Shown here one piece after another: positions 1 to 379 of a stretch of DNA of 64,000 nucleotides (position 1 is its first letter; each line of letters opens with the position of its first letter). This stretch comes from Eledone cirrhosa (Eukaryota), in contig OZ024743.1 of NCBI GenBank assembly GCA_964016885.1, forward strand, positions 184,698,001 through 184,762,000, in the 5' to 3' direction. The translations under genes and the position numbers were made by a program. The notes under the pieces are model-generated. The model saw only the letters and a program-made list of their open reading frames with translations, did no database searches and had not been told where the DNA came from.

Positions 1-53
1 GGAGTATATTTACGATATTAAATAAATGGAAACTACATTTATAAAACCATATT

Positions 54-119
54 TATTTAATTATATATATTTCAGGGATATCATATTAACAATATGCAAT
101 GCCTTCCTCAGACAAAATA
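54..119 (-). ncRNA. Type I hammerhead ribozyme motif (minus-strand arm of palindrome)
   Basis: Reverse complement reads tattttgt-CTGAGGA-aggcattgcatattgttaatatgatatccct-GAAA-tatata-TA-attaaata. Confidence 0.65.
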
Positions 120-270
120 CAATATAAACAGTTTTATAGATAAATAGATTTGACATACTGTACAACATCGACTTGTATTTGAAAAGTTGAACTGCCAATT
201 CAACTTTTCAAATACAAGTCGATGTTGTACGGTATGTCAAATCTATTTATCTATAAAACTGTTTATATTG

Positions 271-336
271 TATTTTGTCTGAGGAAGGCATTGCATATTG
301 TTAATATGATATCCCTGAAATATATATAATGAAATA
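271..336 (+). ncRNA. Type I hammerhead ribozyme motif (plus-strand arm of palindrome)
   Basis: tattttgt-CTGAGGA-[stem II with catatt/aatatg]-GAAA-tatata-TA-atgaaata. Stem I tattttgt/atgaaata pairs using G-U; stem III is palindromic, as in Penelope minimal hammerheads. Confidence 0.7.
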
Positions 337-377
337 AATATGGTTTTATAAATGTAGTTTCCATTTATTTAATATCG

Positions 378-379
<2 letters not shown>

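Follow-up and report, generated by a model that had tools for sequence, protein, structure and literature searches.

The question raised by this locus is whether a nearly perfect palindrome with a hammerhead ribozyme motif on both strands is a mobile unit in its own right or the product of a larger element, and by what route it was made. In the window (the whole stretch analyzed, 64,000 nucleotides of Eledone cirrhosa DNA), inverted-repeat arms of 181 bp each lie at 11-191 and 199-379, share 98% identity, and flank a 7-nt center at 192-198. Alignment of the arms, which mismatch only at 59/331 and 159/231, confirms the palindrome of ~181-bp arms and a 7-nt loop that an earlier note had described from the letters alone. 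The absence of an open reading frame (ORF) claimed there holds as well, as none of at least 120 amino acids overlaps 11-379. The bounds that it gave, 11 to 379, are correct on the right, where the arm has no tail and abuts (TA)n directly, but not on the left, where an 87-nt tail absent from the right arm continues past 11. This tail is split between window 1-10 (- strand, its first 10 nt) and 77 nt that precede the window and end in (TA)n; it differs by one mismatch from the tail of a full-length copy. With pLTR +1 placed at window 191, an arm without a tail ends at +189 and the tail extends to +276. The left, tail-bearing arm (11-191, - strand) is thus pLTR +9 to +189, followed by the tail at +190 to +276, and the right, tail-less arm (191-379, + strand) is pLTR +1 to +189. 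The joint, which includes what had been called the loop, is element +1 to +8 (191-198, + strand), and the arms overlap by 1 nt at 191. A (TA)n-rich target microsatellite at 380-558 follows on the right side and matches the (TA)n tract beyond the left tail. The palindrome lies in an extended locus, L039, in which window position 1 is position 8002.

It is near certain that the palindrome is a truncated, inverted insertion of a Penelope-like element (PLE). It is a heavily 5'-truncated, short head-to-head insertion into (TA)n, at the low end of a continuum that reaches 6 to 7 kb. Foldback elements and MITEs have equal terminal inverted repeats that are mobilized by a transposase; here the tail makes the ends unequal and 5'-truncated retroelement sequence fills the interior, so that this identity is rejected. 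The window also holds long inverted repeats of other repeat families at 58005-60686, 43800-45672, and 6906-7729.

The parent can be described from its other copies. Each arm is the pLTR of a PLE, and inverted pLTRs occur in the palindrome and in sister copies, which bears out both the suggested tie to those Penelope pLTRs that carry minimal type I hammerheads and the suggestion of inverted pLTRs. With the arm as query, 1,450 candidates were found in the 3.0-Gb genome, of which 40 were scored, and exact matches to a 26-nt end motif number 4,792 genome-wide. The element unit is ~3.9 kb; the full copy in L033 consists, in order, of a short inverted arm, a partial pLTR and tail, a 748-amino-acid frame, a long 3' untranslated region, and a pLTR and tail. 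The frame, present in L033 and L032, combines a reverse transcriptase (RT) with a C-terminal GIY-YIG domain, the motifs of which were identified by eye in an alignment. Its predicted structure is an RT fold (mean pLDDT, 68) for which bacterial and telomerase RTs lead the matches, and Pfam and PDB sequence searches with it returned no match. Thirteen relatives were found, none of which bears a family name. The protein P0001 has the motifs RWR, DKT, a CNCRDRSKC linker, CDLC, and CKH, and a single C between its GIY- and YIG-like motifs, and it lacks the CCHH cysteine pair. Insertion into (TA)n and a hammerhead in the pLTR are further traits of the Hydra clade, and pLTRs formed by partial tandems, together with a 5'-truncated copy in inverted orientation and a tail on one end only, are seen in six loci (L032, L033, L038, L087, L096, and L105). 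As judged by its protein motifs, which set the clade, the element is an EN+ PLE of Hydra type. It represents a new family within this known clade, young and of high copy number; files S1/S2 of Craig 2021 may contain it or a family close to it. In two loci, L038 and L096, tandem copies occur in which the upstream unit passes +1, to about -320 and -795, which implies read-through, tandem, or circular templates besides an RNA that starts at +1. A decayed PLE frame of another family, with a Pfam GIY-YIG match, lies at 1214-2962 (- strand) of the window.

The hammerhead motif that had been reported on both strands was recovered there with a descriptor, at 271-336 (+) and 54-119 (-). On the + strand, stem I is formed by 271-278 and 329-336, the CTGAGGA core lies at 279-285, stem II at 286-316 (31 nt), and GAAA at 317-320; a palindromic helix III of 8 nt (320-327) precedes a predicted cut after A328. 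On the - strand, the predicted cut falls between 62 and 61, and stem I is weakened by the change at 59 (7 of 8 pairs, versus 8 of 8 on the + strand). The features of a minimal type I hammerhead are present: a core of CUGANGA and GAAA, an NUH site, both stem I and stem II, and a palindromic helix III. The descriptor finds five motifs in the window versus one in total over 50 block-shuffled windows. Rfam gave no match at the gathering threshold and no hammerhead family among 33 matches at E<=10, the sub-threshold matches being microRNA hairpins. Among 158 distinct arms, N7 is the only core site that varies freely (G78/A53/T16/C1), and outside the core there is free variation only at a stem II mismatch and in the loop; in related families, letters of helix III and stem I are swapped and pairing is kept. 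We infer from this constancy and from the pairing-preserving swaps that the motif is maintained in the source elements.

The ribozyme was also considered as a source of copy ends, and was rejected in this role. Foreign bases directly precede +1 in 411 matches, the ribozyme cut site in 108, and a control site in 118, counts that also catch small indels and differ in their subfamily reach; the cut site thus has no excess over the control. The partial 5' pLTRs of full copies begin near +51, +63, +107, +152, -324, and -795. The hammerhead would be a conserved passenger of the pLTR, with a cut site that leaves no mark on copy ends, in agreement with the use of uncleaved RNA as substrate in Frangieh 2024. 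Its activity is predicted to require a dimer, and minimal motifs of this kind have low activity according to the available text of Cervera and de la Pena 2014 (PMC4209133). In read-through RNA of the palindrome, the motif is predicted to be masked by its own antisense, and the long hairpin that the earlier note envisaged is supported by the computed fold (-273.6 kcal/mol for the full palindrome RNA versus -25.4 for one arm).

Other hammerhead motifs occur in the window and elsewhere. An unrelated minimal motif at 629-665 (+) has its core at 637, a 4-bp stem I, a 4-nt palindromic helix III, and a GUU site, with related motifs in L047 and L111. A further family, at 10710 (-), is set apart by the sequence of its 8-nt palindromic helix III, has a long stem II, and is also present in L039, L045, L069, and L105. 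An inverted pair at 14250-14702 and 13905-14019 belongs to a related pLTR family (79% to the pLTR of the palindrome) and has its own hammerhead at 14457 (-). A tandem array with a period of ~97 bp (G000:C26:23054703-23055217) holds the 3' part of the pLTR from near the predicted ribozyme cut site.

The earlier note had called for other palindromic copies, of which there are many; the first 100 of the 4,792 end-motif matches yielded 34 divergent pairs within 10 kb. In 33 of the 34, one tailed arm faces one tail-less arm (p 4e-9 versus free choice), and the lone exception is a tandem. No partner motif lies within 10 kb of 32 of the 100 listed ends, 16 of each kind; among 13 unpaired or similar copies that were inspected, three have a very short partner arm, one has a normal partner, and none was seen for the others. 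Palindromes of two tail-less arms number two (L161 and L186) among 57 short loci. Extrapolation gives about 1,600 inverted pairs genome-wide and, from contig 1, roughly 800 pairs under 400 bp.

The two arms of a pair resemble each other more closely than they resemble other copies. Arm divergence is 0.6% within 65 pairs versus 4.4% between loci (0.47% in 116 of 134 loci), and the arms share subfamily marks, with no mixing of subfamilies in the 65 compared pairs, of which L059 and L072 are mosaic for a mark. Private changes are confined to one arm in 33 cases and shared in nine. The lengths of the arms vary independently: among 33 pairs of contig 1, the tail-less arm reaches farther in 11, the tailed arm in 12, and the two are within 20 nt in 10; in the 17 long pairs the arms differ by 154 to 2,823 nt. 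Because either arm can reach farther, neither is a copy of the other. Arm starts were read by hand, and three rows were dropped (L035, rearranged; L077, with an unresolved joint; and L062, a probable misalignment). L031 is a 6.3-kb palindrome (1271-7552), each strand of which carries the 3' part of the ORF, and its arms show no difference over 2,617 nt compared; either it is very young, or its arms have been converted or collapsed. The presence of extra template bases where the tail ends does not separate short copies (6 of 34) from long ones (4 of 18), and this end type therefore does not discriminate between priming on the 5' and on the 3' pLTR.

The joints point to a fixed limit at +1. When both arms reach +20 (19 pairs), they stop together at +1 to +20 in six, both pass in 12, and stop at -7/-7 in one, and none is split (p 2.5e-5 versus independent stalling). 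The longer arm starts at +1 to +7 in 10 of the 33 contig 1 pairs. Position +1 follows a T run and forms a TCACT initiator-like motif; given this motif and the genomic ends, +1 is probably the 5' end of the RNA. A G precedes +1 in 19 of 57 non-native ends (p 4e-5 versus an expectation of 12.5%, p 0.10 versus 25%), possibly as a copy of the cap. Position +1 is present on both arms in 54 matches, and of the 49 examined, two have both arms at +1 and no center base and seven have a 1-nt center, both too short for hairpin priming. Of 52 joints, 51 were resolved. Microhomology of 1 to 4 nt is present in 24 of 25 clean joints (null expectation, 50% with none), a value slightly inflated by the use of several reference copies, and extra or unassigned bases are present in 26 of the 51, several copied from nearby, although at least five of these 26 inserts are failures to match a reference. 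The exact joint of the window recurs at 24 loci, and 11 more share its axis (35 in total); among the 24, the tail belongs to the +1 arm at 11 loci and to the opposite arm at 13, and the joint occurs on at least five sets of marks. Since several subfamily backgrounds bear this joint and either arm can be the tailed one, it was re-made, not copied as a unit. Dozens of other joints at +1 exist besides that of the window. One kind of chimera recurs in L122, L132, L133, and L135: a piece of a related pLTR, in inverted orientation, lies directly against +1.

Based on these features, we think it probable that both cut target strands prime reverse transcription on the same sense RNA and that the two cDNAs are joined in the middle. 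One cut (TA)n strand would prime at +276 and the other at +189, which would leave a tail on one arm only. Both cDNAs would extend toward the RNA 5' end, one of them being displaced, and their 3' ends would anneal by microhomology or the RT would jump between them, each first strand then serving as template for the second strand of the other; the joining agent could be the RT or host repair. Short palindromes such as that in the window would arise from RNA that starts at pLTR +1, with cDNA ends pairing through the weakly self-complementary +1 to +9, which would yield one recurring joint of either polarity. The shared stop at +1 links the two arms to a single molecule whose 5' end on the sense strand is fixed, and the pairing rule, the common source, and the independent arm lengths together make a simple fold-back of the first cDNA insufficient. 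Whether PLEs generally integrate by coupled double priming, with one complex, two fixed sites, and a single RNA, is a broader proposal toward which we lean only slightly.

Biochemical work on an anole Penelope (Frangieh 2024, PMC11167929, as far as its available text goes) bears on double priming in both directions. The protein, predicted to be dimeric, cuts and extends both strands, two start sites bracket the tail, and uncleaved RNA is the substrate. The strands showed no difference in start site, however, so that the strict pairing of tailed with tail-less arms is not yet reproduced in vitro. Double priming is, moreover, read from fixed copies and not from an observed intermediate. Recombination between arms could flip centers and equalize polarity, and conversion could equalize arms; the identity of the L031 arms and the two symmetric palindromes indicate that arm exchange may occur. 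Many small joints, including that of the window, fit fold-back equally well.

We consider it unlikely, although the idea has a published precedent, that the inversion instead arises by self-priming, through fold-back of a cDNA or an antisense RNA, with an endonuclease trimming one arm at +189 and recombination later flipping the center. Self-priming has been proposed for Penelope (Arkhipova 2013, PMC3846280) and resolution of tails by a nuclease for PLEs (Craig 2021, PMC8557442), both in the portions available. It accounts for the shared marks and the microhomology, the joint of the window and 11 near-perfect joints share one fold axis, and +187 to +195 is TA-like. Fold-back of a cDNA, however, needs its loop on the tailed arm, whereas the tail-less arm is the longer in 11 of 23 unequal pairs, and the loops would reach 2.8 kb. 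Centers of 0 and 1 nt also argue against it, and an antisense template leaves the shared stop at sense +1 unexplained. Self-priming with trimming survives only if centers are flipped frequently by recombination, and the persistence of 82 one-arm changes in 116 pairs indicates that arm exchange is not fast.

Two cDNAs made from two RNA molecules, with arm likeness due to a shared source or to gene conversion, would be an improbable origin. A dimeric protein could hold two RNAs, of which the hammerhead is predicted to be active as a dimer, and the identity of the L031 arms over 2.6 kb and the mosaic pairs L059 and L072 would fit. Against this, the 65 pairs do not mix subfamilies, private changes fall 33:9 on one arm versus both, and the arms both stop at +1 or both pass it, never one alone. 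The earlier note had raised the possibility of a non-autonomous, strand-symmetric ribozyme element, which would spread as a palindromic unit. The 24 loci with one exact joint, the 35 with one axis, and the extrapolated 800 short pairs are what such a unit would leave, but we find it very improbable and the claim is not sustained. The tail is on one arm only and on either arm (11:13), at least five mark sets stand under one joint that was re-made on them, dozens of other +1 joints exist, and the insertions form a continuum to kilobase arms with ORF pieces and on to 6 to 7 kb; there are neither tandem arrays of the unit nor an excess of ends at the ribozyme site. An assembly fold-back, which the earlier note had named as a possible refutation, can be dismissed. 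Although no read or contig piece among those listed spans the joint type of the window, the arms differ at two sites, only one has a tail, and the flanks differ; the joint recurs at 24 dispersed loci whose backgrounds are not alike; and in raw Illumina reads from a different sample the end without a tail leads into (TA)n (5,306 loose ends), and strand-switch joints are present elsewhere.

Two further observations come from the read data and from the changes within arms. Four read runs were aligned to a natural pLTR; the joint of the window is not among the listed matches, a few strand-switch joints were seen elsewhere, and a second organism also carries the family. Among both-arm changes absent from the nearest loci, 30 of 63 are A>G on the sense strand in the pLTR (34 of 75 with L062 included) versus 6 of 82 one-arm changes (p 4e-8), and some of the shared A>G changes recur on different backgrounds. 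Recurrent both-arm A>G changes lie at pLTR +24, +49, +114, +139, +147, and +164 in many loci. The element body shows no significant excess (16 of 68 versus 7 of 54, p 0.17). ADAR editing of the template and an RT error bias in earlier rounds both fit the excess.

The hairpin itself is an already known arrangement, as are opposite-strand pairs of pLTRs or hammerheads and tails. What is distinctive is the 87-nt tail, the near-rule by which a tailed arm pairs with a tail-less one, and the constraint that these place on the PLE mechanism. Craig 2021 (PMC8557442, section 15) treats as an open question how PLEs come by their inverted repeats and tails, and we found no statement of a double-priming model in the open-access literature, which omits most subscription papers. 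The family offers thousands of young copies whose ends discriminate between integration models, and it makes predictions for the anole in vitro system, namely, strand-coupled start sites, one RNA per insertion, and cDNA-cDNA joining. Coupled double priming, if true, would account in one step for the tail, the head-to-head inversion, and the synthesis of the second strand. The family would then supply the genome with more than a thousand near-perfect hairpins, in which the A-to-G changes common to both arms may be a trace of editing of the template RNA. The approximately 1,600 extrapolated inverted pairs are potential sites of double-stranded RNA and instability.

The comparisons that follow are with the available portions of each source. 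The element shares with the Hydra clade (Craig 2021, PMC8557442) the C-terminal GIY-YIG, RWR/RWK, DKT, a CxCX5C linker, the lack of CCHH, and CxxC and CxH motifs near a conserved E and N, as well as the (TA)n target, the pLTR hammerhead, the inverted 5'-truncated copy, and the one-end tail. It differs in its unit of ~3.9 kb (Hydra elements are "generally <3 kb"), in its 87-nt tail (30 to 40 nt for PLEs), and in that the inverted partner is here the usual product, with a tailed arm strictly paired to a tail-less one. Poseidon_Ac (PAc) of the green anole (Frangieh 2024, PMC11167929) likewise has two internal RT starts that bracket the tail, an AT-rich target, cutting and extension of both strands, and no need for hammerhead cleavage. 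It belongs to another clade, and only the Eledone element has a pLTR and tail wholly before the ORF. In the Eledone element both start sites pair with (TA)n at 7 of 8 positions, a property that is not unique to them, as 17 pLTR windows score at least 7 of 8; such pairable start sites are a difference from Poseidon_Ac, and the available text on Poseidon_Ac contains no account of inverted copies.

The hammerheads of metazoan PLEs (Cervera 2014, PMC4209133) are, like that studied here, minimal type I motifs with a palindromic helix III and a long helix II. The same source describes dual motifs on opposite strands 100 to 700 bp apart, probably truncated PLEs, for which its available text gives no mechanism; their layout is that of the palindrome. 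Penelope of Adineta vaga (Arkhipova 2013, PMC3846280) has the same head-to-head inverted pLTRs, palindromic joints, one-arm tail, and TCACT; self-priming on an antisense template was proposed there from few copies, whereas the Eledone counts favor two primings on sense RNA. Non-LTR retrozymes (Li, Clavereau, and Pollet 2026, 10.64898/2026.07.22.740005) are similarly ORF-less and pLTR-derived, with a type I hammerhead, but are head-to-tail tandems, and the palindrome has its motifs on opposite strands. As a single inverted pair, it is not a retrozyme.

Twin priming of L1 likewise involves a single RNA on which both target ends serve as primers, and microhomology joins the resulting cDNAs; the cDNAs copy different, nonoverlapping parts, and the path is a minority one. 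Here, in contrast, the same part would be copied from fixed sites 87 nt apart, and the palindrome is the usual product.
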